Origin: an uncultured Acidimicrobiales bacterium
GTDB lineage: Bacteria; Actinomycetota; Acidimicrobiia; Acidimicrobiales; SZUA-35
Assembly (NCBI GenBank): GCA_963717115.1
Contig: CAVQVO010000020.1
Coordinates: 1,158,357 to 1,222,356 of the forward strand
DNA length: 64,000 nt
Direction: 5' to 3'
Shown here: positions 9,010 to 57,746 of the stretch, one piece after another
How the letters are laid out: each line of letters opens with the position of its first letter
How positions within the stretch are numbered: position 1 is the first letter of the stretch
Program-made: the position numbers and the translations under genes
The notes under the pieces: generated by a model
What the model saw: only the letters and a program-made list of their open reading frames with translations
What the model was told of the DNA's origin: nothing
Databases searched by the model: none

Positions 9010-10245
9010 ATGGACCCCACCACCGTCGTCGTCATCGGCGCCGGCCAGGCGGGACTCGCGATGAGCCACCACCTCTCCGGTCGAGGAATCGACCACGTCG
9101 TCCTCGACCGGGGGGAGGTCGCCAACTCCTGGCGGACCGAGCGGTGGGATTCGCTGCGACTGCTCACGCCGAACTGGATGACCCGGCTGCCGGGTCACCG
9201 CTACCGCGGGCCCGACCCCGACGGTTTCATGACCCGCGAGGAGACCGTCTCGTTCCTCGCCGGATACGGCTCGGTCTTCGGTGCGCCGATCCGGACCCAC
9301 GTCACGGTGCGAGAGGTGCGGGCGCGACACCGGGGCTTCGAGGTGCTGACCGACCAGGGTTGCTGGTCGTGCGACGCCGTGGTGGCAGCGACGGGAGCTT
9401 CGAGCGAGCCACACCTTCCGGCCGCCGCCGCTGACCTTCCGACTCGCATCGTGCAGTTGACGGCGCTGACCTATCGCAACCCCGACCAGCTCGGGAGCGG
9501 CGACGTCCTCGTTGTCGGTGCGTCGGCTTCGGGTGCACAGATCGCCGACGAACTGCAGCGCAGTGGGCGACCGGTCACCCTGGCCGTCGGCGAACACATC
9601 CGTCTGCCCCGCCACTATCGAGGTCGCGACATCCACTGGTGGATGGACGCGATCGGCCAGCTCGACGAGCGATACGACGAGGTCGAAGACCTCGATCGGG
9701 CCCGGCGACTCCCCTCGCTCCAGCTGGTGGGGAGTCCCGAACACCGCACCCTCGATCTCAACACGCTGACGGCGTCGGGGGTCGAGGTCGTCGGCCGACT
9801 CGCCCGCATCATCGGCGACACCGCCCAGTTCTCCGGAGGATTGCCCAACCTCGTCGCCAACGCCGACCTGAAGCAGAATCGACTGCTCGAGCGCATCGAC
9901 GACCACGCCACCGATCACGGCCTCGACGCCGACCTGCCCCGACCCGAGCGACCGCGACCGACCGTGCTCGGCACCGTGCCGACCGAGATCGATCTGCGTC
10001 GGTTCGAGACCGTCGTCTGGGCCACGGGCTACCGGCCGGGCTACGCCTACCTGGATCCGGCGGCCTTCGACCGGCGTGGGCGCGTCGTGCACGACGGTGG
10101 CATCTGCGCCCTCCCCGGCCTGTACCTGGTCGGTCTCCCCTTCCTCCGCCGCCGCAAGTCGAGCTTCATCGACGGCGTGGGGCCCGACGTCGCCGAGCTC
10201 ATGGATCACCTGTGCGCCCACCTCGTGCGGCGGATTCGGGCCTGA
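9010..10245 (+). CDS. FAD/NAD(P)-binding oxidoreductase (flavin monooxygenase-like)
   Basis: In ORF 8545..10245, from MDPTTVVVIGAGQAGLA. There is a second dinucleotide fold, VLVVGASASGAQIA. Confidence 0.8.
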   Translation: MDPTTVVVIGAGQAGLAMSHHLSGRGIDHVVLDRGEVANSWRTERWDSLRLLTPNWMTRLPGHRYRGPDPDGFMTREETVSFLAGYGSVFGAPIRTHVTVREVRARHRGFEVLTDQGCWSCDAVVAATGASSEPHLPAAAADLPTRIVQLTALTYRNPDQLGSGDVLVVGASASGAQIADELQRSGRPVTLAVGEHIRLPRHYRGRDIHWWMDAIGQLDERYDEVEDLDRARRLPSLQLVGSPEHRTLDLNTLTASGVEVVGRLARIIGDTAQFSGGLPNLVANADLKQNRLLERIDDHATDHGLDADLPRPERPRPTVLGTVPTEIDLRRFETVVWATGYRPGYAYLDPAAFDRRGRVVHDGGICALPGLYLVGLPFLRRRKSSFIDGVGPDVAELMDHLCAHLVRRIRA

Positions 10246-10253
10246 CGCCGGAG

Positions 10254-12824
10254 TCAGTCGAGATGGGGTCGGCCGAGCAGGGCATTGCGGGTCCGGCCGA
10301 CGATGGTCCCCACCGGCATGGCGGCCCCGACGGCACGCTGCTCGGCCATGCGCTCCGATCCCAGTCGTTGGAACAGCGAGTCGCGGGTCTCGAAGGCCAG
10401 ATCCCGAAGGGTCGTCATCACCGGGGGCCCTCCCATCGTGGTGTGGGCCTCGATGGCGCCGAGGACCTGGGCGGCGAGTTCGTCCTGCCCGATCCGGTCG
10501 AGTCCGACCACACACCGGGAGAGCGTGTGCCATTGCTGCGCCCATTCCCCGGCGCGAAACCAGGTGTCGACCATCTGCGCCAGACCTTCGCATCCTTCCA
10601 CCACGCGACCCTGGTGGACGAGCAGGCCGCTGGCCTCGGTCCGGGCGAACGCGCTCATCCAGCGATTCCCCGCCGACCGGGCCAACCAGTCGGCGGTGGC
10701 GAAGGCTTCGAGCGCCGCTGCGTCGTCCTTCTCGGTGGCGAATCCCTCGGCCACCGAGGCCGAAGCCAGGTCGGTCGGGCTCCCCGTCCGTCGCCCGGCC
10801 TCCCGGGATCGGGCGATCAGTTCCCGGGCCTCGTCGGAGCGTCCGAGCGAACTCGAGGCGACCGACGCCATGTAGAAGGCGTGGGCTCGACGGGAGTGGT
10901 CTCGGGAGTCCTCGGCCAACTCGATCAGGCGGGCCCCCTCGACGAGACCCGCTTCGATCTGTCCGGTCGCGTACAGCACGTTCGCCAACACCCGTTCGAC
11001 GAGCCCGGACGGTGTGATGCCCGACTCGCACTCGGCCTGCCTGGCCGTCTCGGCGAGGGACAGGGCTCCCCCGAAGTCACCGCGGACCCATGCCCCATAG
11101 GCGCGAACGCCGGTGACGACCGACCAGAGCCGATGGCCGTCGCCGCCCTCGAGCGCGCCCGCCGAGTCGGCCCACGCGAAGACCTCGTAGCGCAGGGTGC
11201 GCATGGCGTACTCCCGGAGCGAACCGATCAGACCGAAGGCGGTGTCGAAGTCGTCGATCTCGAGGGCGAACCGCTGCGCCGAACGCAGATCGGCGAAGGC
11301 GGCATCGGCGCGGAGCACCGACTGGTGTTCGGTCGACGATCGCAGCCCGCACTCCACCGATGCCGCGACGGCCGCATGATGCTGCGCATGACTCTCGAAG
11401 AGCTCCACGCTCGCCTGGTCGCCGAGGCGTCCCCGGCCGTACTCGCGCAGCGTTTCGAGCATCTCGTACTGGATGCCACCGTGTGATGGCCGCCGGACGG
11501 CGACCATCGACCGCCGGGTGAGGCGGGTCAGCAGGTCGAGGACGTCGTCACCGCGGCAGACCGACTCCGCCGCCTCGAGATCGAAGGGACCGGCGAAGAC
11601 CGCCAGCGATGCGAACAGCGCCCGCTCGTCGTCGTCGAGGAGATCGTAGGACCAGCTGATCGCGTCGTGCAGGGTTCGGTGGCGAGGGTCGGCTCCCCGT
11701 CGGACGCCTTTGAGGAGCCGGAACCGCTCGTCCAGGCGTCGGGCGACCTCGGCGACGTCGATCGCACTGGTCCGTGAGGCGGCGAGCTCGATGGCGAGCG
11801 GGATCCCGTCGAGGCGGCGGCAGATCTCGAGGACGGCGGGCGTGGAAGCGCCGTCGAGCTCGAATCGGGGGTCGGCGGCCCGGGCCCGCTCGACGAACAG
11901 GGACACCGCCGGGATCGTGGCGATCTCGGCCGGCGTCGTGACGCCCCGCTCGGAGCGGTCGTTGCCGGCCGTCCGCAACGGTTCCACGGGCCACACGTGT
12001 TCGCCGGCCAGCGCAAGCGGTTCGCGGCTCGTCGCCACGATCGAGACGTGGGGAGCCGCCTGGAGGATCCGCTCGACGAGCATCGCCACCGGCTCGACGA
12101 GGTGTTCGCAGTTGTCGAGGACGAGCAACACCTGACGCGGCCGCAACATGTCGACGATGGCGTCCTCGATCGAGTCCCGCTGACTGGTGTTCACGTCGAG
12201 CGCCGTTGCGAAGGCACCGAATGTGGCGTCTCGATCGACCACGGTGACCAGTTCGACGACGAACACCCCGTCGGCGAAGTTGCGCTCGATCCTGCGGGCG
12301 AGCTCGAAGCCAACGGCAGTCTTGCCGACCCCACTGGTCCCCACCAGGGTGAGCAGCCGGGTCGAAGCCTGATGCCCGACGAGTTCGGCGAGGAGGTCGT
12401 CGCGTCCGATGAGCCGCTGCACGGCCACCGGCAACGACGACCCGCTCGTGGGGACGGCGACGTCGGACCGGCGTTGGGCCCGGGTCCTCGGCCGAGGCGA
12501 ACGAGCCCGATCCTCGACGACTCGAACCTCGGCGATGAACTCGTAGCCCTTGCCATGGACGGTCCGCACGACTCGCTGGTTGGTGCCGTCGTCGCCGACG
12601 GCCTGGCGAACCGACTTGATCCTCGTCGTCAGCGCCGATTCGCTGACGAATCGGTCGCCCCACACCTCGTCGAGGAGTTCCTCCTTGCGCACCATGGCGC
12701 CCCGACGCTCGATGAGGACGCTCAGCAGATCGAAGACCTGGGGCTCGAGCGCCACGTCGATTCCGGCACGGCGAAACACGATCCGACCGAGATCAAGCTC
12801 GCAATCGTCGAATCGCAGGATCAT
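10254..12824 (-). CDS. OmpR/PhoB-type winged-helix + STAND/NB-ARC ATPase + TPR-like transcriptional regulator
   Basis: ORF 10254..13019, trimmed to MILRFDDCELDL. It has the wHTH motif VRTVHGKGYEF, the Walker A motif GTSGVGKT, and a long helical-repeat C-terminus. Confidence 0.8.
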   Translation of the reverse strand: MILRFDDCELDLGRIVFRRAGIDVALEPQVFDLLSVLIERRGAMVRKEELLDEVWGDRFVSESALTTRIKSVRQAVGDDGTNQRVVRTVHGKGYEFIAEVRVVEDRARSPRPRTRAQRRSDVAVPTSGSSLPVAVQRLIGRDDLLAELVGHQASTRLLTLVGTSGVGKTAVGFELARRIERNFADGVFVVELVTVVDRDATFGAFATALDVNTSQRDSIEDAIVDMLRPRQVLLVLDNCEHLVEPVAMLVERILQAAPHVSIVATSREPLALAGEHVWPVEPLRTAGNDRSERGVTTPAEIATIPAVSLFVERARAADPRFELDGASTPAVLEICRRLDGIPLAIELAASRTSAIDVAEVARRLDERFRLLKGVRRGADPRHRTLHDAISWSYDLLDDDERALFASLAVFAGPFDLEAAESVCRGDDVLDLLTRLTRRSMVAVRRPSHGGIQYEMLETLREYGRGRLGDQASVELFESHAQHHAAVAASVECGLRSSTEHQSVLRADAAFADLRSAQRFALEIDDFDTAFGLIGSLREYAMRTLRYEVFAWADSAGALEGGDGHRLWSVVTGVRAYGAWVRGDFGGALSLAETARQAECESGITPSGLVERVLANVLYATGQIEAGLVEGARLIELAEDSRDHSRRAHAFYMASVASSSLGRSDEARELIARSREAGRRTGSPTDLASASVAEGFATEKDDAAALEAFATADWLARSAGNRWMSAFARTEASGLLVHQGRVVEGCEGLAQMVDTWFRAGEWAQQWHTLSRCVVGLDRIGQDELAAQVLGAIEAHTTMGGPPVMTTLRDLAFETRDSLFQRLGSERMAEQRAVGAAMPVGTIVGRTRNALLGRPHLD

Positions 12825-15079: not shown

Positions 15080-15592
15080 TCAGCTCGGGATGGGAACACC
15101 CATCACTGGCATGGACTCCGGCTCGAGGCCGAGCACGATCAGCTGTTTCGAGAAGCCGATGAACGTTCCCATGGCGTAGGTCAGCTCGACGATCTCGGCG
15201 TCGGTGAACTCCTGCCTCAGGCGGGTCTCGATCTCGGCGTCGGGCCCGGACCCCCCACTCAGCAGACGATCGGCCCACGCCAGGGCGGTCTTGTAGCGCT
15301 CGGGAAGGTGTCCGTCCTGATGATCGTCGGTGATCCCGTCGACGAGTTCCTCGGTGAGACCGGCCTCACGGGCCTGGTCGAAACGGATCTGTCGTCAGAG
15401 GCCGCAGTCGGTCACCCGGGCGTTGCGCAGACGGATGAGCTCCTTCACGTCGACGTCGAGCACACCCTTGGACCACAGGGTGGCGTACATGGCGTCGAAG
15501 GCCTGGCGAACGGCCGGGCTGTGCGCCATGACGGTGCGGCTCGAGGGGGATCGTCCCTCGATGGCCGACGGCAGGCGAGGCGTGGTCGACAT
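15080..15592 (-). CDS. AhpD/carboxymuconolactone-decarboxylase family protein with one in-frame TGA (candidate Sec codon) at 15395..15397
   Basis: ORF 15395..15592 ends ...RVTDCGL-TGA. My own translation shows the same frame continuing for 104 sense codons (RQIRFDQAREAGLTEELVDGI...GVPIPS) to TGA 15080..15082. The start ATG overlaps the upstream stop (ATGA). Confidence 0.6.
15358..15379 (-). other. SECIS-like hairpin 15 nt downstream of the in-frame UGA
   Basis: The RNA is GACC(A)GGCC-CGUGA-GGCCGGUC: an 8-bp stem with one bulged A and a 5-nt apical loop containing GU. Confidence 0.35.
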
Positions 15593-16062
15593 CAGTCGTC
15601 TCCTTCGGAGCGGCCCGTCAGGAGGGCGTTGTCGAATCGGTGGGTGTTGTCCCAGATTGCGAGGGCGGTGGTGAGCGTGATCACGCCGTCGGGACCGATG
15701 TGGCCGGCGACCTCGGCGACCTGCTGGTCGGTCACCCCGTGGATGTCGATGACGTACTGCTCGGCGAGCCCCAGACAGGCCTTTGCCGCCGCATCGAATC
15801 CGGGGTGGGTCGGCCAGCGGCTCAGGTCGGCAACGAGTGACTCGTCGAGACCGGCGTCCACAGCGGCCGCCGATCGAGGTTCGCTCCAGGCCCGTTCATT
15901 GCCAAGGATGGTGGCGGTCCGCAGTCGGCAGTACTCGAGCAGGCGGGCATCGAGCTCCGATCGCCACACCTCGTCGAGGACCCGATGGTGATCGGCGGCC
16001 AATGCCGGGACGAGCGCCAGCAGATCGTCGCGGGACGATGCGTTCTCGACCAGCCAACTCAT
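15592..16062 (-). CDS. AhpD/carboxymuconolactone-decarboxylase family protein (no CxxC)
   Basis: 156 aa, with ...LLEYCRLRTATILGNE... in the position where the family usually carries CxxC. It sits directly upstream of the TGA-containing paralogue. Confidence 0.8.
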   Translation of the reverse strand: MSWLVENASSRDDLLALVPALAADHHRVLDEVWRSELDARLLEYCRLRTATILGNERAWSEPRSAAAVDAGLDESLVADLSRWPTHPGFDAAAKACLGLAEQYVIDIHGVTDQQVAEVAGHIGPDGVITLTTALAIWDNTHRFDNALLTGRSEGDD

Positions 16063-28339: not shown

Positions 28340-29734
28340 TCAGGGCTTGCGTCGGCCGGCGAGGATGTCGAGTTCGACGTGCAACCGTTCGGTGAAGAGC
28401 GAGAGGTCGGGCACGAGCTCGCGATCGGCCACGAGGCTGAAGTCGACGGTCGAGCCGTTCGACATGGCACTCACCGACAGGCCGGTCCCGTCGACCAGGG
28501 TCGACATCGAGAACTGATGGGCCACCCGATGGCCGGCCAGCTCGTACTCGGTGTCGCCGCCGGGCACGTTGACCACATAGACGTTGAAGGGCGGCATCAG
28601 CCTCGTGAAGGCTCCGGTCCGCACGATCCACCGAGACGCCAGGGCGGCGACCGCCGGTGAGGCGCCGTACATCGAGCGAATGGCCTCGACGGGGCGGGCA
28701 TGGATCTCGGCGGTCAGCTGGGCGGTGGCATCGCTGATCTCGCGCAGTCGCTGGATCGGGTCGTGACGGTGCGTGGCCAGGGGAACCAGGGCGGTTCCGA
28801 GGGGCTCGTCGACCGAGTCGACCAGCAGCGGGGTCAGGGCGATCAGCGGGTCGGGCGGCAGCTCGTCGTGCAGGACGAGCCAATGACGCAGGGTGCCGGC
28901 GATGAGGGCGAGCACGACGTCGTTGAACCGGACCTCGTGACGGTGGTGAATGGTGCGGATCTCGTCTTTCGGGAGTGAGGTGAAGGCCACCCGGCGGTGG
29001 GTGCCGAGCGTGCGGTTGAACGAGGTCCGAGGCGCCGTGTGATCGGAACCGGGCACCTCCACCGCACCCCTGGGTGCCGTCCAGGGGGCCAGGGTGCCGA
29101 GCACGTTGAAACGGCCGACGACCGGGAGTTGGCGAGACGCCTCGGCGGCGAGCGCCGTCATCCGCCACGGACTGCGGGCCATGGCCCACCACGCCCGGAT
29201 CAGCAGATCGGTGTCGTCGGGGACCCGGTCGGGGCGGATCTTCGGCGCAACCGGGGTCTCGGCGGCATCGGCGGTCAGCGGTGCGAGGACATCGAGACCG
29301 GTCACGCCGTCGATCAACACGTGATGGACCTTGATGAAGAGCCCGGGGTTCCCGTCGTAGCGCTCGATCAGGTACATCTCCCACAGGGGTCGACGGCGAT
29401 CGAGCGGGCGTTCGTGCAGCCGGCCGATCAGGTTCTGGAGTGCGTCGTCACCATCGGAGCGGGGGACGGCCAGATGACGCACGTGGTAGTCGAGGTCGAA
29501 GTGCGGGTCTTCGAGCCACCAGGGCCGATCGAGGTTGAGCGGCACCTTGTGCAACCGCCGCCGGAAGCCCGGCAGCATGTGCAGACGGGCCGCGACGAGC
29601 TCGCGCAGACCGTCGAAGGTCAGCACCGAGTCGTCGCTGACCGGCTCGAGTTCGACGAAGATCGAATGATGGCCCAGGTTGTGGCGCGTTTCGGCGGCCA
29701 ACAACTCGGCTTCGCGGGGGGTGAGTTGCTGCAT
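28340..29734 (-). CDS. wax ester synthase/diacylglycerol acyltransferase (WS/DGAT)
   Basis: Last 464 aa of ORF 28340..30184, from MQQLTPREAELL. It has the catalytic motif HHVLIDGVTG. The start overlaps the upstream stop (ATGA at 29734). Confidence 0.85.
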   Translation of the reverse strand: MQQLTPREAELLAAETRHNLGHHSIFVELEPVSDDSVLTFDGLRELVAARLHMLPGFRRRLHKVPLNLDRPWWLEDPHFDLDYHVRHLAVPRSDGDDALQNLIGRLHERPLDRRRPLWEMYLIERYDGNPGLFIKVHHVLIDGVTGLDVLAPLTADAAETPVAPKIRPDRVPDDTDLLIRAWWAMARSPWRMTALAAEASRQLPVVGRFNVLGTLAPWTAPRGAVEVPGSDHTAPRTSFNRTLGTHRRVAFTSLPKDEIRTIHHRHEVRFNDVVLALIAGTLRHWLVLHDELPPDPLIALTPLLVDSVDEPLGTALVPLATHRHDPIQRLREISDATAQLTAEIHARPVEAIRSMYGASPAVAALASRWIVRTGAFTRLMPPFNVYVVNVPGGDTEYELAGHRVAHQFSMSTLVDGTGLSVSAMSNGSTVDFSLVADRELVPDLSLFTERLHVELDILAGRRKP

Positions 29735-30816
29735 CAGGAGGTCGCGTCTCGGGCTTTCGGTTTCCGGGGTCTGGTCGTCGACGAGGCCGTTCCGTTGCGT
29801 CGCGCCTCGGGCGCGGCGGTGGGCGTGACCTTGGGTTTGGCTCTGGATTTGGCTCTGGGTTTGGCTCTGGATTTGGGCTTGGCCTTGACCGTCGCCGGGT
29901 CGACCGTGACCCCGATGGTGTCGGGGGACGGTCCCGGTTCGATCACGACGGGCCGTGGCGCCGGGCCGGCCGGCACGAGACCGGCGGCCGGCCCGACCAG
30001 CTCGTTCTCGATCGACGGATAGAAGCGACGCAGCATGTCGGGGGGATCGAACGGACGCCACGTCGAGCGGGGCAGGGCCAGACGGTCGGCGAGCAGATAG
30101 AAGACGGCCGGATTGGCGCCCAGACCGGTGTGGCTCCCCCGGACCTCGATCACCTCGGCGTTGTGGCGAATGCTCTGTCGGCACGCCAGTCCCGGCACCA
30201 CCCCGTCGGTCCGGGTCCAGACCGTCGTCGACGGAACCGGCACCCGATCGAGGTCGAAGCGCCGGGGCATCTCGAGGAAGAGCCGGGCCGACAGCCGCTG
30301 CAGATAGCCGATGTTGGTCTGGCTCGATTCCATGTTGATCGGCGAGCCGAGGCTGATGACCTGCCGGACCAGTTCGGAGCGGTTCAGGGCGAGGACCCGT
30401 CCGAGGATCCCGCCGGCGCTCCAGCCGACGATGTCGATGGGTTCACCGTACTCCTGAGCCAGATCGCGCAGGGTGCGGTCGACCCCTTCGGCGATGTGGT
30501 GCGAAGCCCCGACGTTGAGACCGAGACCCCAGCCCGACGGCTTGTGCCCGATCGAACGCAGGAACAACCGCAGAGGCAGGGTGGCCGAATCACCGCTGAC
30601 GAAGCCGGGGAGGACCAGGACCGGGCGGGGTGGGCCGAGCGGAGCCACGTAGGCCGCCATCAGCGCCGACGACCCGACGAAACCGAATTCGGGCAGCGCT
30701 CGGAGCTCTCGCAGGATCGACGACGGCCGGTAGACCTCGGCGACCGGCCCTTGGGCTCCAACCGACGCGTCGGAGAGCGTCTGCCGCTGTCCTTTCCGAC
30801 GTACGGATCGAGTCAT
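29734..30816 (-). CDS. alpha/beta hydrolase (lipase/esterase-like) with Lys/Pro/Ala-rich C-terminal tail
   Basis: ORF 29734..30978, trimmed to MTRSVRRKG. It has GWSAGG (GxSxG) and the tail VKAKPKSRAKPRAKSRAKPKV...RPRKPKA. Confidence 0.75.
   Translation of the reverse strand: MTRSVRRKGQRQTLSDASVGAQGPVAEVYRPSSILRELRALPEFGFVGSSALMAAYVAPLGPPRPVLVLPGFVSGDSATLPLRLFLRSIGHKPSGWGLGLNVGASHHIAEGVDRTLRDLAQEYGEPIDIVGWSAGGILGRVLALNRSELVRQVISLGSPINMESSQTNIGYLQRLSARLFLEMPRRFDLDRVPVPSTTVWTRTDGVVPGLACRQSIRHNAEVIEVRGSHTGLGANPAVFYLLADRLALPRSTWRPFDPPDMLRRFYPSIENELVGPAAGLVPAGPAPRPVVIEPGPSPDTIGVTVDPATVKAKPKSRAKPRAKSRAKPKVTPTAAPEARRNGTASSTTRPRKPKARDATS
29836..29883. repeat. 4 x 12-bp tandem repeat encoding the (A/S)KP(K/R) tail units
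   Basis: Direct reading gives tttggctctgga / tttggctctggg / tttggctctgga / tttgggcttggc. Confidence 0.8.
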
Positions 30817-30995
30817 GAGGCCTCTGAGTCTAGGGCAACCGGTGCCATACCTCCTGATCGGCACGGTGGGGCGCCATTCAAGCGGTGAGGGGTCGGGCGG
30901 GTGACCGAACCGGGCAGTTGCCGAATCGGGCAATTGTCCGTACATTAGCAGGAGCCGGCTCGATCGACGACCCGCCATCCGTCCCAGGAGTCCCG

Positions 30996-31295
30996 ATGAC
31001 GTTCCACCGCGAAGTACCCATCACCCGGGCTGCCGAGCTCGCCGCCCAGGGCGCCCAGTTGATCGACGTCCGAGAGGCCAACGAGGTGGCCGTCGCCATG
31101 CTCGACGGCGCCCTCCACATCCCGCTGGGCGAGCTGCCGAACCGGCTCGACGAGCTCGACCGGTCCCGTTGCGTGGCCCTGATCTGTCGGAGCGGCAATC
31201 GCAGCGGCCAGGCTGCCGCCTTCCTGACGGCGAACGGGTTCGACGATGTCGTGAATCTGACGGGCGGGATGATCGAACTGGGCCTGTCGCAGTAG
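30996..31295 (+). CDS. single-domain rhodanese sulfurtransferase
   Basis: In ORF 30885..31295; the ATG follows CAGGAG. The active-site loop is CRSGNRS. Confidence 0.85.
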   Translation: MTFHREVPITRAAELAAQGAQLIDVREANEVAVAMLDGALHIPLGELPNRLDELDRSRCVALICRSGNRSGQAAAFLTANGFDDVVNLTGGMIELGLSQ

Positions 31296-38808: not shown

Positions 38809-39024
38809 GTCCAGCTCCCTGTCGGTTCGTCGTGATTCGAGTTCGTTGCCGTTCGAGTGCGACGTGGTTCGAGTTGCGTGGTTCGACCGGCCGGCCCCGT
38901 GACCGATGACCCTATGGCCGGGCGACGACAGCGTCCAGACGGCCGAGGCCGTCACGGTCGGGGGCAGGCCCGACCTCGGCTGAGTCGAAATAGACGGGGT
39001 CAACCATGGGTTGTCACGAGCACG

Positions 39025-40668
39025 ATGTCCTCGTCTCCCCTGCCCAACACTCCCCCAGCTCCCGCCGACGCCGGCTCCTCGCTCGACGACCTGGAGTTCA
39101 CCAACACCTTCCAGCTCGAGCTCCCCGCCGATCCCGACGACCGCATCGTGCCCCGACCGGTCCACGGGGCGGCCTACTCCCGGGTCCGGCCCTCCCCGAC
39201 TGCGGCTCCGGTCACACTCGCCGTGACCGACGAGATGCTCGACGTCCTCGGCCTCGACCGGGCCGACGCCGAGTCGGAGCGGTTCGCCCAGGTCTTCTCG
39301 GGCAACGAGCTCCTCGACGGCATGGACCCGTACGCCATGAACTACGGGGGCCACCAGTTCGGGAACTGGGCCGGCCAGCTCGGCGACGGCCGGGCGATCG
39401 CTCTGGGCGAGGTCCGGACCCCCGACGGCCAACGCCTGACCCTCCAGCTGAAGGGCGCCGGTCGCACGCCGTATTCCCGCTCCGCCGATGGCCTGGCCGT
39501 GCTGCGCTCGTCGCTGCGCGAGTTCCTGTGCAGCGAGGCGATGCACCATCTCGGTGTTCCGACCACTCGGGCCCTGAGCCTGGTCCTCACCGGCGACAAG
39601 GTCGTGCGCGACATGTTCTACGACGGTCGCCCCGAGGCCGAACTGGGGGCGGTGGTGTGCCGGGTGGCGCCCAGTTTCCTGCGCTTCGGCAACTACCAGC
39701 TGCCGGCGTCACGAGGCGAACACGAGCTGCTGCGAAGCCTGCTCGACCACACGATCGCCAACCACTTCCCCGAGCTCCTCGACCGGCACCCGGCCTCCTC
39801 GCCCGAGATCCATGCGGCGTGGTTCGCCCGTGTTGCCGACCTCACCGCCGATCTGATGGTCGAGTGGATGCGCGTCGGTTTCGTCCACGGCGTCATGAAC
39901 ACCGACAACCTCTCGGTGCTCGGCCTCACCATCGACTTCGGACCGTACGGCTGGCTCGAGGACTTCGACCCGGGCTGGACCCCGAACACCACCGATGCCC
40001 AGCACCGGCGCTACCGATACGGCAACCAGCCCCAGATCGGCCACTGGAACCTGGCCCAGCTCGGCAACGCGCTCGTTCCGCTCATCGACGACGTCGAACC
40101 GCTGCAGCAGGCGCTCGACGGGTACGTCGACCGGTATCAACGCGGTTACCAGGCGATGATGGCCTCGAAGCTCGGCCTGTCGGCGTTCGATCCCGAGACC
40201 GACGACGACCTGATCCGGGGGGTCATCGACGTGCTCGTCTCGGCCGAGACCGACATGACGATCTTCTTCCGGAACCTGGCCGACGTCGACCTCGGCGCCG
40301 ATTCCCCGAGCCGGTTCGACCCGCTCCGAGACGCCTACTACCGGCCCGAGCAACTCGACGACGACGTGATGGCCGGCATCGACGCCTTCCTCGACGCCCT
40401 GGCCGCACGGGTCGCACGAGATCCACTCGACACCGACGAGCGCCGCTCCCTCATGCGCTCGGTCAATCCCCGGTTCGTCCTGCGCAACTACCTGGCCCAG
40501 CTGGCGATCGACGCCGCCGAAACCGGCGATCCGTCGAAGATCCACGAGCTGCTCGACACGCTCCGCCGACCCTACGACGACCAGCCCGGCCGCGAGCACC
40601 TCGCCGGAAAACGGCCCGAGTGGGCCCGATCACGCCCGGGTTGCTCGATGCTGTCGTGCAGTTCATGA
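39025..40668 (+). CDS. selO: protein adenylyltransferase SelO (YdiU) family, Cys form
   Basis: In ORF 38857..40668, from MSSSPLPN. It has NYGGHQFGNWAGQLGDGRA, HGVMNTDN, and the C-terminal ...MLSCSS. Confidence 0.85.
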   Translation: MSSSPLPNTPPAPADAGSSLDDLEFTNTFQLELPADPDDRIVPRPVHGAAYSRVRPSPTAAPVTLAVTDEMLDVLGLDRADAESERFAQVFSGNELLDGMDPYAMNYGGHQFGNWAGQLGDGRAIALGEVRTPDGQRLTLQLKGAGRTPYSRSADGLAVLRSSLREFLCSEAMHHLGVPTTRALSLVLTGDKVVRDMFYDGRPEAELGAVVCRVAPSFLRFGNYQLPASRGEHELLRSLLDHTIANHFPELLDRHPASSPEIHAAWFARVADLTADLMVEWMRVGFVHGVMNTDNLSVLGLTIDFGPYGWLEDFDPGWTPNTTDAQHRRYRYGNQPQIGHWNLAQLGNALVPLIDDVEPLQQALDGYVDRYQRGYQAMMASKLGLSAFDPETDDDLIRGVIDVLVSAETDMTIFFRNLADVDLGADSPSRFDPLRDAYYRPEQLDDDVMAGIDAFLDALAARVARDPLDTDERRSLMRSVNPRFVLRNYLAQLAIDAAETGDPSKIHELLDTLRRPYDDQPGREHLAGKRPEWARSRPGCSMLSCSS

Positions 40669-46264: not shown

Positions 46265-46434
46265 CGCGACGGTCGCCGACCGTTCCTGCCGGTTCGATCA
46301 CGCAACGTGGTCGAACCGGCCGTTTGACCTGATGGCTGAGAAGGATTGCCCCTGATTTCACCACGCACGGTGAGAGTAGATTGGTGTTCCCCGGCATGCG
46401 CACCCGGCATTGCCGCCCGAACGACGGACACCTC

Positions 46435-48597
46435 ATGTTGCTTCGACCCCGTGCTCTTCGAACCTCCGGCCGGCGTCGCACGCCGGCTGCGGTTCTCGCC
46501 CTCGTCATGACCGCCGGACTGCTCGCCGCCTCGTCACCCGCCGGCGCCGAGCTCGGAGCCCAGCCCACCAACGGTTGGGGCGTGGTCGGCGAGATCGCCG
46601 GCACCGAGACCAAGTCCATCAAGTCCGAGGTGTTCACGATCGAACAGATCGGGAACCGGATCTTCGTGGGCGGCAAGTTCACGACCGCCACCAATGGCGC
46701 CGTCAGCGAACCGCAGGCCGGCCTCGCGGCCTTCGATGCCACCACCGGCGCGTTCCTGTCGTCGTGGCGACCCCAGCTGAATGGCGCCGTCTACGCCCTC
46801 GAGGCCTCCCCCGACGGTTCCCGACTGTTCGTCGGTGGCGACTTCGAGACCTACAACGGTGTCAACACCGGCGGCCTCGTCGCCGTCGACCCCGCAACCG
46901 GGGCGATCGACACCACCTGGTCCGGCCGGGTCGGCGGCTACAACGTCGTGCGAGGGCTCGACAGCGGTCCCGACGGCTTCCTGTACGCCACCGGGGGCTT
47001 CACCTCGATCGCCTCTGCCGGCCAGGGCAGCGTCGCCTATCGGGTGGGACGCTTCGCCCTGTCGAACGGCGCCATCGACGGGACGTGGCAGCCGGTCATC
47101 CAGGGCGGCACGGTCTGGGGCATCGCCGCCAGCCCCGACACCAGTCGGGTCTATCTGGCCGGCACGTTCGCCACGTCCAACGGCGCCTTCGCCCAGCAGG
47201 GTTTCGCCGCCCTGTCGACGGTCGACGGTTCCAACGTCTCCGGCCTCGCCCCCGTGGCGTTCAACACCTCCAACGTCAACCGTCGATACCTCTACGACGT
47301 CGAGGTCGGCAACGGTCTGGTCTGGGTCGGTGGCAGCGAGCACTTCGTGCAGGCCCTCAACGAATCCGATCTCTCACTCGAGAAGTTCCACCTGGCGAGC
47401 CCGGTCGGCGATTTCCAGGACATCGAGATCGTCGGCGACCGGGTCTACGCCGGCTGCCACTGCCGCCTGGGCGCTCGCATGGACAGCTCCGACGGCGTGC
47501 TCTGGTACGCCAACCAGGGTCCGAGCGCGCCGATCACGGGGACCGCTCCGACCGGCTGGGTCACGGCCTTCGATGCCTTCACCGGCGAGCACGTCGACGA
47601 GTTCGTGGCGTCGTTCAACAGCCTGGGCCCGGGAGTCTGGGCCATCCACGGCTCTCCCGACGGCTGCGTCTGGTTCGGCGGCGACATCAGCGCCGCCGCC
47701 AACACGGCGATGAACAACCTGCTTCGCCTCTGCGAGGACGGAGGCAACCCGACCGACCTCGAGCGCCCGTCGACGCCGGGCAAGCCGCAGGTCACCGACG
47801 TCGGTCCGGCCTCGGTCACCGCGAACTGGACCCCGGCCACCGACAACGTCGGCGTCACCGGCTACCGGATCTACGACGACACCACCGGCAACGTGCTGCT
47901 CGACACCCCGGGCACCACCGGCACCATCAGCGGCCTCTCGGCCGGCACCTACCGGCTCTACACCAAGGCCTACGACGCCGCCGGCAACGAGAGCTACCGC
48001 AGCGGCATCCAAGCCGTCACCGTCACCGGAGCCGTCGTCGACCTCGAGCGCCCGTCGACGCCGGGCAAGCCGCAGGTCACCGACGTCGGTCCGGCCTCGG
48101 TCACCGCCAACTGGACCCCGGCCACCGACAACGTCGGCGTCACCGGCTACCGGATCTACGACGACACCACCGGCAACGTGCTGCTCGACACCCCGGGCAC
48201 CACCGGCACCATCAGCGGCCTCTCGGCCGGCACCTACCGGCTCTACACCAAGGCCTACGACGCCGCCGGCAACGAGAGCTACCGCAGCGGCATCCAAACC
48301 GTCACCGTCACCGGAGCCGTCGTCGACCTCGAGCGACCCTCGACCCCGACGGGCAACATGGTGCTCTCGGTCGTTGGCGCCACCGTCGACCTGGCGTGGA
48401 ACGCATCGACCGACAACGTCGGCGTGACGGGTTACCGCCTCTTCGACTCGGCCAACCAGCCCATCGTCGATGTGGCAGCGACGTCGGCGACCCTGAGCGG
48501 TCTGGCCCCCGGGAGCCACTCGGTGTACGTCAGGGCGTTCGACGCCGCCGGCAACCTGTCGTGGCGGTCGAACACGGTCACCGTCGTCGTCGGCTGA
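46435..48597 (+). CDS. secreted beta-propeller-repeat protein with three C-terminal fibronectin type III domains
   Basis: ORF 46381..48597, trimmed to MLLRPRALRTSGRRRTPAAVLALVMTAGLLAASSPAGA (signal, RRR). It has repeated ...GGxF...G...GLAAFD...G...W units, followed by 3 FN3-like units (WTPATDNVGVTGYRIY...YTKAYDAAGNES). Confidence 0.75.
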   Translation: MLLRPRALRTSGRRRTPAAVLALVMTAGLLAASSPAGAELGAQPTNGWGVVGEIAGTETKSIKSEVFTIEQIGNRIFVGGKFTTATNGAVSEPQAGLAAFDATTGAFLSSWRPQLNGAVYALEASPDGSRLFVGGDFETYNGVNTGGLVAVDPATGAIDTTWSGRVGGYNVVRGLDSGPDGFLYATGGFTSIASAGQGSVAYRVGRFALSNGAIDGTWQPVIQGGTVWGIAASPDTSRVYLAGTFATSNGAFAQQGFAALSTVDGSNVSGLAPVAFNTSNVNRRYLYDVEVGNGLVWVGGSEHFVQALNESDLSLEKFHLASPVGDFQDIEIVGDRVYAGCHCRLGARMDSSDGVLWYANQGPSAPITGTAPTGWVTAFDAFTGEHVDEFVASFNSLGPGVWAIHGSPDGCVWFGGDISAAANTAMNNLLRLCEDGGNPTDLERPSTPGKPQVTDVGPASVTANWTPATDNVGVTGYRIYDDTTGNVLLDTPGTTGTISGLSAGTYRLYTKAYDAAGNESYRSGIQAVTVTGAVVDLERPSTPGKPQVTDVGPASVTANWTPATDNVGVTGYRIYDDTTGNVLLDTPGTTGTISGLSAGTYRLYTKAYDAAGNESYRSGIQTVTVTGAVVDLERPSTPTGNMVLSVVGATVDLAWNASTDNVGVTGYRLFDSANQPIVDVAATSATLSGLAPGSHSVYVRAFDAAGNLSWRSNTVTVVVG
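47755..48324 (+). repeat. 2 x 285-bp near-identical tandem duplication (one FN3 domain each)
   Basis: Copy 1 is 47755..48039 and copy 2 is 48040..48324. By direct comparison I find only 2 mismatches (gcg/gcc, and gcc/acc giving A->T). Confidence 0.9.
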
Positions 48598-54487: not shown

Positions 54488-55617
54488 TTCGGATCCTCGG
54501 GTCGAGTACGGCGTACAGGAGGTCGACGAAGAAGTTGATCAACACGAAGCCGACGGCGATCACGACCACCACCCCCTGGACGACCAGGAAGTCCTTCGAG
54601 AAGATCGCCGTAGCCAGGTAGGTCCCGAGGCCGGGCAGCGAGAACAGGGTCTCGATGATCAGGGTTCCCCCGATCAGCGCTGCGGTGTTGATGCCGAGCA
54701 CGGTGAGCAGGGTGAAGCTCGAGGGCCGGAGGGCGTGGGCCCACAGGATCCGGGTCGTCGACACACCCTTGGCCTTGGCCGTGGTGATGAAGTTCTCCTG
54801 CAGGGTCGAGATCATGTCGGAGCGCAGGAGTCGCATGTAGGTCGCCGCCTGCCCCATCGACAGCGCGATCGTGGGTAACAGCATCTGCTTGAAATGGGCC
54901 CACGGGTTCTCGGTGAAGGGCACGTAGCTGGCCCGCGACACCGTGGCCGGGAACCAGTCGACACCCAGGTCGACCCCGAACACGTTGAGGCCCCCCAACG
55001 CAAAGGTCAGGATCAGCACCACCGCCAGCACGAAGTTCGGGATCGACAAGAACCCGAGCGCCACGGTGCTCGAGCCGCGGTCGGCGGCCGAGCCCTGGCG
55101 GTAGGCGGCATAGACGCCGATGGGGACGGCGATCAGCAGCGACATCAGCGTGGCGTAGAACATCAGCTGCAGCGAGATCGGGATGGCGTTGGTGATGCCC
55201 TCGCTGACGGGCCGGCTCAGGAACGGCGACACGCCGAGGTCTCCCTGCACGGCGTCGCTCAGCCACAGCAGGTAGCGCTGGTGCAAGCGGTTCGTTGAGG
55301 TGGAGGTCTTCCATGATCTCGGCCACCGACGCCTCGGTGGCCGAGGGGCCGAGGATGTTGAAGGCGATGTCTTCGGGATTGCCCCGTCCGTTCTGCAGGT
55401 AGAAGGTGAACAGGGTGACGAGGAAGAGGGTCGGCACCAGGGCCACGAGGCGGCGGATCACGTAGGTGCCGTTCACGTAGGTGGCACCGGCGACGAGGAT
55501 CACGAACACGACCAGCAACAGCCACAGGTAGGAGACCCCGGCCAGGCGGCCCAGGATCAGGACCAGTGCGCTCCCGCCGATGGTCAGGAGTCCTGGGCTC
55601 TTCAACGCCTCTGGCAC
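54480..55617 (-). pseudogene. oligopeptide ABC transporter permease (OppB/DppB-like) with one frameshift near 55284
   Basis: The N-terminus lies in ORF 54337..55707, from GTG 55617 (VPEALKS...YVIRRLVALVPTLFLVTL...IMEDLHLNEPL). The remainder (HQRYLLWLSDAVQGDLGVS...) lies in ORF 54480..55286. Confidence 0.75.
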
Positions 55618-55789
55618 GTGGTCCCCTCTCGTTCCGGTCTCGGTCGGTGCGACACATCCCCCGGTCGATTTGTGCCGACCGTCACACCAGCGGAAAGGTA
55701 GGCCCAAACCCGCCGACGCTCAAGTCGGGCCCCGACCGATCGGTACGGCAACGGTCAGGCGACGACGCCGTGACGACTCGGGCCCCGAA

Positions 55790-55817
55790 TTGACAGCCCC
55801 GACACACGACCTATTGT
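55790..55817 (+). promoter_or_regulatory. candidate promoter TTGACA-N16-TATTGT with overlapping inverted repeat GACACA-N8-TGTGTC (55801..55820)
   Basis: Read directly in the oppB/SBP divergent region. It is followed by a leader hairpin CTCGTCAC-AGCTC-GTGACGAG (55822..55842). Confidence 0.3.
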
Positions 55818-55864
55818 GTCGCTCGTCACAGCTCGTGACGAGGATCCGAGGGGAGACGTTCCAC

Positions 55865-57746
55865 GTGAGAGTTGGCTCGACACTGACCAAGGTGTTGGCC
55901 CTGCTGTTCGCCTTTGCGATGATCGCCGCTGCGTGCGGCGGTTCATCCGACGAGAGCGACGGCACGACCGACACCACGACCGACGACGGGGGCGAGGACG
56001 CAACACCGACCACCGTCGTCGCGCCGACCACCGAGCCTCCGGCCGAGGGACCGACCAAGGGCGGCAAGCTGGTCTACGGCATGGAGGCCGACTCGGCCAA
56101 CGGCTGGGCCCCCTACCGGGTCAGCTGCGCCATCTCCTGCTACCGGATCATGGGCGTGATCTCGGACTCGCTCTTCGTGCCCAACACCGATGGTGGCGTC
56201 TCCGGGGTCCTCGTCGAGTCCGCCGAGTCCAACGCCGACTTCACCGAGTGGACGCTCACGATCCGTGACGGCATCACCTTCCACGACGGTACGCCGCTCA
56301 CCGGCGAGGCCGTGGCCTTCAACATCGACACCTGCCGGGCCAGCAGCCTGACCGGTCCGGCGCTGTCGAACATCGGCGGGGTCGAGGCCAACGGCCAGGA
56401 CGTCGTGATCACGATGAAGACGCCGTGGGCGCCGTTCCTGTTCAACATGGCCGGGGGCCAGTGCTCCTACATGTTCTCGCCGGATTGGCTGAAGAGCCTG
56501 GCCGACGTGCCCCAGCGCACCGAGGGTTCGCCCTTCTTCGACGCCGAGGTCGCCGCCCTGCCCGCCGATGGTGACGCCACCAAGCCGGTCGGTCTCGGAG
56601 CCTTCACCTTCGTCTCCTACGAGCCGGGCAACGGCAACAGCTTCATCGCCGAGCGCAACGAGGACTACTGGCGGGGCCCGAACGGCATCACCGGCGAAGA
56701 CTTCCCGTACCTCGACGAGGTCGAACTCGTCGTGGTCGTCGACATCGCCAGCCGTTCCAACGGCGTGGAGTCCGGCGAGTTCAGCGTGATCCACACGGCG
56801 AACTCCGACGAGATCAAGCGCCTGATGGACAACCCCGACGTGAACATCATCATGGCCAACGACTTCGGCAACACCAGCTACACCATGCTCAACGTGGCCC
56901 AGGGCGACAACCCCACCCTGGCCGCCATCACCGGCGCCGCCGAGCCGATCCCGATGGATCCCGAAGGGGTCAACGCCGACCAGCCCGCTGCTCCACAAGT
57001 CGTGCCGCCAGGCCCTGGCCTGGGCCACCGACAACGACCGCCTGGCCGAAGAGCGCGGTGGCGGCCTGGTCGACGTGGCCAACGGGCCGTTCCCTCCGGG
57101 TTCGATGGGCTACCTCGAGGACACCGGCTTCCCCGGGTTCGACATCGCCAAGGCCCAGGAGCTGTTCGAACAGTGCAAGACCGATGCCGGAACCGACCTG
57201 ATCTCGTTCCGTTTCGACACCACGAACGATCCGTTCAACGTCGAGACCAACGAGCTCGTGATCTCGATGTGGAAAGAGGCGTTCGGCGACGAGATCGATG
57301 CCACGATCTCGCCCGTCGAGCAGGGCTCCTACATCGGGCTCGCCCTGACCGGTTCCTTCCAGGCCTTCGGTTGGCGCAACCACGGCGGGATCGACCCCGA
57401 CACCGAGTTCATCTGGTGGTTCTCGGGCACGTCGTCGCCCATCGGTGTCGCTGGCGCTGAACTTCGGGCGCTTCCAGGATCCGGTCATCGATGCCGCCCT
57501 GATCACCCAGCGCTCCACCGATGACGTCGAGGTGCGCCGCAAGGCCGCCGAGGACATCAACCGGTCGTTCGGTGAGAACGTCTGGAATCTCTGGAGCACC
57601 TGGACCCTGTGGGGCATCGCCTCCAACCCGAACGTCCAGGGCATCACCGACCTGCATGACACCCGACGGCGACACCCAGCGTCCCGATCGTCGGCGGTGG
57701 TCACCCGATGATCGGCATGTGGTGCGTCGACGCCACCTGCAACTGA
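55865..57746 (+). pseudogene. family-5 peptide ABC substrate-binding lipoprotein with about 4 frameshifts in its 3' third
   Basis: GTG 55865 follows GAGGGGAG, and the lipobox is MIAAAC. The frame is intact to ...GVNADQP (about 56985). The product then continues through ORFs 57075.., 57445.. and 57521.., plus a fifth frame ending IVGGGHPMIGMWCVDATCN-TGA 57746. Confidence 0.75.

Follow-up and report, generated by a model that had tools for sequence, protein, structure and literature searches.

A gene of the AhpD/carboxymuconolactone decarboxylase (CMD) family, found in 64,000 nucleotides of DNA from an uncultured Acidimicrobiales bacterium (the whole stretch analysed, hereafter the window), contains one in-frame UGA. 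Does this codon encode selenocysteine (Sec), or does it mark a gene that is dead? An earlier note on this DNA had proposed a candidate selenoprotein. The pairing of TGA and Cys at one codon column, selection on the 3' half of the gene and a hairpin linked to TGA all agree with that proposal. On this comparative evidence, the locus is very probably a functional selenoprotein gene, in which UGA 15397..15395 would be decoded as Sec. The locus comprises the following features.

15080..15592, minus strand: predicted selenoprotein gene of the AhpD/CMD family, 170 codons including Sec66, motif C63-G-L-U66 (basis: frame, translation, Pfam CMD match, orthologues).
15395..15397, minus strand: putative Sec codon (UGA, codon 66), at the column where homologues have the second Cys of CxxC (basis: codon census, protein alignment, PDB profile alignment).
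15080..15082, minus strand: true terminator UGA; orthologues stop at the same place.
15358..15379, minus strand: putative bacterial SECIS hairpin, with two 4-bp stem segments separated by a bulged A and the apical loop CGUGA at 15370..15366.
15592..16062, minus strand: upstream CMD-family paralogue, 156 amino acids, without CxxC or CxxU; 1 nt shared between its stop and the selenoprotein start (TGATG); Pfam CMD match of 29.9 bits.

The reading frame continues beyond the internal UGA. It starts at ATG 15592, meets TGA 15397..15395 and then stays open for 104 sense codons to TGA 15082..15080. This is the frame that the earlier note had read, and our translation agrees with it; the peptide flanking the internal TGA is RLRNARVTDCGL*RQIRFDQAREAGL. 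With Cys placed at the stop, the selenoprotein matches Pfam CMD (PF02627) at 29.3 bits, against a gathering cut-off of 23. The claim that the 3' half has no start from which to re-initiate also holds, as the window's listing of open reading frames (ORFs) contains none of at least 40 amino acids able to restart it. The window was also scanned for further in-frame TGAs flanked on either side by coding signal; this gave ordinary gene ends only, yet it missed TGA 15397..15395 too and was therefore too insensitive to speak against a second selenoprotein.

Relatives of the gene carry either TGA or a Cys codon at the Sec column. All full-length homologues from protein databases (42-52% identity) have Cys at the position of the stop, in the motifs CGLC, CGFC, CGYC and CGIC; the Cys homologues aligned were P0001, P0003, P0006 and P0016. 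These motifs, and a profile alignment to PA0269 (GCAYC), place the UGA at the second Cys of CxxC, just where it had been assigned from the window alone. The same protein search gave fragments of about 100 amino acids that start just past the Sec position, and their contigs hold a 65-codon ORF, a stop and then a 3' ORF. We compared 91 loci from genomes and metagenomes, 80 of which were added by a metagenome scan with the family alignment and are the best 80 of 456 matches. When checked across these loci, the column is TGA in 81 of 91, TGC in the other 10, and never TAA or TAG, a TGA:TGC ratio that is a biased estimate for the family because the 80 metagenome loci are the top of 456 ranked by similarity to the query. 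Two TGG matches at this column were rejected as off-frame artefacts.

The TGA carriers are the window, two metagenome-assembled genomes (MAGs) found by genome scan and 78 metagenome contigs, and they span at least two phyla. An Acidimicrobiales MAG (L001) has an orthologue that is 89% identical and has TGA at the Sec column; its locus is syntenic with the window at a nucleotide identity of 80-85%. The second MAG (L002) is from Proteobacteria, and its gene, which is 47% identical, also has TGA at this column.

By dN/dS, the codons past the UGA are under the same purifying selection as the codons before it. Between the window and seven orthologues (Nei-Gojobori; dS 0.5-2.2), codons 1-65 have a dN/dS of 0.05-0.17 and codons 67-170 one of 0.06-0.22. 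Relative to the 89%-identical orthologue, dN/dS past the UGA is 0.15 at a dS of 0.52. The 3' half has therefore stayed under selection for as long as the two have diverged.

The UGA is followed by a hairpin that resembles bacterial SECIS elements. The hairpin, GACC(A)GGCC-CGUGA-GGCCGGUC (15379..15358), begins 15 nt past the UGA and has an 8-bp stem. The published bSECIS model has a loop of 3-9 nt, an upper stem of at least 4 bp, a G in the first two loop positions, a UGA-to-loop distance of 16-37 nt and a minimum free energy of -7.5 kcal/mol or lower (PMC13188914). The window hairpin agrees with this model throughout, with a 5-nt loop (G at position 2, then U), an upper stem of 4 bp above a lower stem of 4 bp, a spacing of 24 nt and an energy of -11.8 kcal/mol. 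Thus, the earlier description of a bulged-A hairpin with a GU loop, compatible with SECIS function, was sound. As an isolated 22-nt sequence, the hairpin has z = -2.7, and 2 of 200 shuffles fold as well. In a context of 48-71 nt, z is about -0.8, which is unexceptional for a sequence of 69% G+C. Because of this context value, the single-sequence hairpin is unconvincing alone, and its significance rests on the relatives. Rfam gave no SECIS match, either at the gathering threshold on the whole window or at E up to 10 on 15250-15500, where only noise was returned. Rfam covers few bacterial SECIS elements.

Three SECIS architectures occur among 67 distinct post-TGA sequences, from loci that include the best 80 of the 456 metagenome matches. 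Class A, the window's type, has the loop CGUG[A/C/U] from 24 nt past the UGA and a 4-bp closing stem; below this stem comes either a bulge or an uninterrupted lower stem. Class B, GCUUCGC-GGUC-GCGA(A/G)GC, has a 7-bp stem and starts 10 nt past the UGA. In class C, a CGUG loop caps a longer, interrupted stem. Class B loci are L010 and L040-L090, and class C loci are L042, L053, L054, L058, L077 and L083. The presence of three architectures in one family suggests that SECIS elements have turned over inside a conserved coding region.

The hairpin co-varies among orthologues, a check by which the SECIS assignment gained support. The 34 class A sequences have 95.6% of their cells paired, and 3 of 8 pairs have compensatory changes on both sides; one pair is GC in 24 sequences, CG in 6, GU in 2 and UA in 2. 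Out of 500 shuffles, not one gave as much pairing or covariation, and the pairing is lost once the partner columns are slid. Class B sequences are 98.7% paired, with one compensatory change from G-C to A-U. A lower-stem register without the bulge was rejected as the general structure (79% vs 95.6% paired), although some subfamilies use it.

The hairpin is also specific to the TGA forms. Of 66 distinct TGA sequences, 60 have a compact hairpin with a GU-containing loop of 4-5 nt, whereas none of the 10 TGC homologues does (Fisher p = 8e-9; the sequences in this and the covariation tests are phylogenetically related and the p-values optimistic, with a clear direction). The remaining 6 TGA sequences are those of class C. 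The TGC homologues lack the hairpin despite encoding very similar peptides (RFDQARRDGL and the like). Raw best-hairpin energy does not separate the two forms (-12.0 kcal/mol for TGA vs -12.3 kcal/mol for TGC), because G+C-rich coding sequence folds anyway; only the loop type and position of the hairpin discriminate between them.

One relative (L005; ENA ERZ25039533 contig_13189, 9778-10291) has retained the TGA, with a stem that is compensated (GCCC/GGGC). Its SECIS loop, UGUGGA, has a 1-nt insertion that shifts the frame, caused either by an indel error in long reads or by genuine pseudogenisation.

The window SECIS can be compared with that of E. coli fdhF. Both are coding-sequence hairpins just past the UGA, and their small apical loops contain G-U. 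The window element differs in its loop (CGUGA), in having a bulged A rather than a bulged U on the 5' side and in its spacer of 15 nt rather than 11 nt. Class B of the same family has the GGUC loop of fdhF.

The selenoprotein has the AhpD/CMD fold, as judged from profile alignments and the model of a Cys homologue. A family profile matches PA0269, an AhpD-like protein of P. aeruginosa (2o4d, 2ijc, 7xw1), at E = 1.5e-16 with the CxxC motifs aligned, and Atu0492 (2gmy) at E = 3.7e-13. The AF2 model of the Cys homologue P0001, which is 50% identical to the window protein, is all-helical (pLDDT 89, pTM 0.83), and its top Foldseek matches are Atu0492, PA0269 and AhpD, with TM scores of 0.63-0.81 depending on normalisation. 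PA0269 and Atu0492 are thus the closest solved structures by both profile and fold (TM up to 0.8). Glu51, Cys63 and position 66 of the family align to E...GCAYC of PA0269. In contrast to the window family, however, the two solved proteins use Cys rather than Sec, have His where the family has Arg70 and lack an N-terminal extension of about 25 residues.

In the active site, the AhpD spacing of a Glu, 11 residues and C-x-x-C is present, with invariant E51, C63 and U66 throughout the family. M. tuberculosis AhpD has Cys130-x-x-Cys133, Glu118 and His137, with Cys133 as the nucleophile. The window protein shares its fold class and its Glu-12-residues-CxxC spacing, and has Sec at the Cys133 position; we take position 66, the second Cys of CxxC, to be equivalent to that nucleophilic residue. 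The two proteins are nevertheless distant: the window gene lacks the His relay, and no linked ahpC lies in the window. The AhpD His four residues past the second Cys is replaced by Arg70, which aligns with the PA0269 His and is invariant in the Sec and Cys forms. The chemistry is therefore possibly unlike that of classical AhpD.

Following the standard bacterial mechanism, the hairpin that begins 15 nt past the UGA, with its CGUGA loop at 24 nt, would be bound by SelB-GTP-Sec-tRNA(Sec) as the ribosome reaches the UGA. Sec would be delivered in place of termination by release factor 2, and translation would run on to the stop at 15082..15080. The predicted product is an all-helical protein of 170 residues with the AhpD/CMD fold, the redox motif C63-G-L-U66 and the conserved Glu51 twelve residues upstream. 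Its selenolate might attack an oxidised partner or substrate, which could be a sulfenate or disulfide of peroxiredoxin type or a hydroperoxide. Cys63 would then resolve the adduct into a selenenylsulfide, and a cellular reductant would recycle it.

Genes for Sec decoding were sought in the window and in related loci. None of selA, selB, selC or selD lies within the 64-kb window. ARAGORN found no tRNA-Sec in the window and 50 larger related loci, and a search of all six frames for signature motifs of SelD (GxGCK-type) and SelB (GH[VI]DHGK) over 431 kb (the window and related loci) gave nothing credible. Sec machinery does exist in the class Acidimicrobiia: selA, selB, selC and selD are reported to be present in all 84 Actinomarina genomes (bioRxiv 10.64898/2026.04.03.716425), a report that constitutes no evidence for the window's own genome. 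At 38836-40665 on the plus strand, the window encodes a homologue of the SelO/YdiU protein adenylyltransferase (PF02696, 408 bits), whose C-terminus is rich in Cys (...CSMLSCSS). This gene has no in-frame UGA and no link to Sec decoding, and takes its name from eukaryotic selenoprotein O.

Could the gene instead be a nonsense pseudogene, in which a once Cys- or Sec-encoding gene now ends at codon 66, for example in a lineage that lost its Sec machinery? Sec machinery was not seen within the window, at least one gene in the window is disrupted by frameshifts, and the relative L005 has a frameshift inside the same gene, all of which would fit such decay. However, TGA, frame and hairpin are kept together in 81 loci (the window among them, and including the best 80 of 456 matches), the low dN/dS past the UGA (0.15 at dS 0.52 relative to L001) argues for a selected 3' half, and a covarying hairpin is not expected to persist in a dead gene. 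We consider decay very unlikely. An error of sequencing or assembly, with a true codon of TGC or TGT (Cys) or TGG, is so improbable as to be negligible. Across many projects and sequencing technologies, 80 independent contigs have this TGA, accompanied by a hairpin that the TGC forms lack. Indel errors do seem to be present in this assembly, but its apparent errors are indels and not substitutions.

The UGA could also be read by a route other than Sec, through reassignment to Trp or Gly or through near-cognate read-through, or the gene could truly be split into two polypeptides. UGA is the ordinary stop of the upstream paralogue and of the selenoprotein gene itself; therefore, the code is not reassigned genome-wide. 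The homologous residue, moreover, is Cys and not Trp or Gly. A split gene finds some support in the many relatives that have GTG two codons past the UGA (the Val of V-R-F), where gene callers predict a separate 3' ORF. In the window, however, this codon is ATC and no usable start exists, and a break here would run through the CxxC motif and its helix. These routes, taken together, are highly improbable, and decoding of the UGA as Sec remains the reading that we favour.

Selenoproteins of this general kind are already known. CxxU AhpD-like and CMD-like proteins have been established selenoprotein families since 2005 and are included in a 2026 review (PMC1088965, PMC2398784, PMC13188914). AhpD-like (COG2128) and CMD-domain CxxU selenoproteins were represented by 27 and 4 sequences, respectively, in the Sargasso Sea survey, and by 299 and 70 in the GOS survey (Zhang and Gladyshev 2005, 2008; PMC1088965, PMC2398784); the earlier note had likewise treated AhpD-like selenoproteins as previously reported. 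The window gene belongs to the same superfamily as the AhpD-like (COG2128/TIGR01926) and CMD-like (PF02627) selenoproteins of those surveys and has the same CxxU with Sec second. It also has in common with them a SECIS directly past the UGA, a small G-containing loop and Cys homologues, and many of the loci related to it likewise come from marine metagenomes. Several homologues bear the JGI name 'alkylhydroperoxidase family enzyme', which is the COG2128 name. The gene leaves general knowledge of selenoproteins unchanged; the CxxU AhpD/CMD kind was already known from ocean metagenomes.

Within these AhpD-like/CMD-like bins, the window gene may represent a separate subfamily. It scores only 22.5 bits against TIGR01926, whose cut-off is 81.8, and its closest structures, PA0269 and Atu0492, are not of the TIGR01926 type. 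The best NCBIfam match is NF053654, 'YciW-related (seleno)protein', a model of Sec and Cys members of the AhpD superfamily; at 52 bits against a cut-off of 310, the window gene is not a member. Neither the window gene nor its Cys homologues reach the curated cut-off of NF053654, TIGR01926, NF041047, NF041238 or NF041537. Furthermore, every close relative found in a collection of 5.8 billion proteins is split at the UGA, into ORFs of 65 and about 100 amino acids. This splitting and the lack of an NCBIfam model at cut-off indicate that the subfamily is systematically mis-annotated. Its proper annotation would be one selenoprotein of 170 residues, neither a pseudogene nor two small ORFs. The gene also implies Sec decoding by an Acidimicrobiales-like organism, which adds to recent reports of selenium use in Acidimicrobiia. 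With Sec and Cys forms and three hairpin architectures, the family makes a clean natural data set on the evolution of SECIS elements within coding sequence.

In locus comparisons, the gene's pairing with a paralogue that lacks the motif proves conserved throughout the family. A paralogue match ends beside the gene start in 74 of 90 other loci (including the best 80 of 456 matches), next to Sec and Cys forms alike, and 34 of 70 junctions have a 1-nt overlap. In two details, the earlier note needs correction. It had described an ATGA overlap, where the actual junction is TGATG with 1 nt shared at 15592, and a Cys-less paralogue, which in fact contains C45 and C95, neither of them at the CxxC position. 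In the family, the paralogue is about 150 amino acids long, with near-invariant R48, E101, H108 and D112. The paralogue is probably a structural partner, translationally coupled to the selenoprotein gene. The Sec subunit lacks the active-site His (Arg70), and the paralogue keeps Glu101, His108 and Asp112; in a composite active site, the acid/base or substrate-binding function might come from the paralogue. That the selenoprotein works only as a hetero-oligomer with this paralogue is a tentative proposal, which we hold to be rather unlikely. If true, it would make this a two-subunit AhpD-type selenoenzyme, of which we found no description, without a dedicated literature search for one. The conserved pairing is the one aspect of the locus possibly worth further work.

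The paralogue and selenoprotein genes stand alone as a pair. Among ten flanking ORFs scanned, a divergent mscL lies on one side and a convergent SRPBCC-type gene on the other.

Several other genes of the window have unusual structures. At 29737-31020 on the minus strand, a 428-codon open frame with coding-like GC3 and no Pfam match overlaps the stop-to-stop frame of a WS/DGAT gene at 28343-30442; it could be a frameshifted 5' part of the WS/DGAT gene or a spurious high-GC ORF. An ABC transporter solute-binding protein gene at 55532-57708 on the plus strand is distributed over three frames, which implies two frameshifts. On this spot check, the disruption fits an earlier remark on indel-type disruptions and suggests either long-read assembly errors or pseudogenes. 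At 46333-48594 on the plus strand, a large, secreted-looking protein has C-terminal repeated modules that resemble fibronectin III by eye. Two copies of about 85 amino acids are nearly identical, which would be consistent with a recent tandem duplication or with assembly collapse or expansion.
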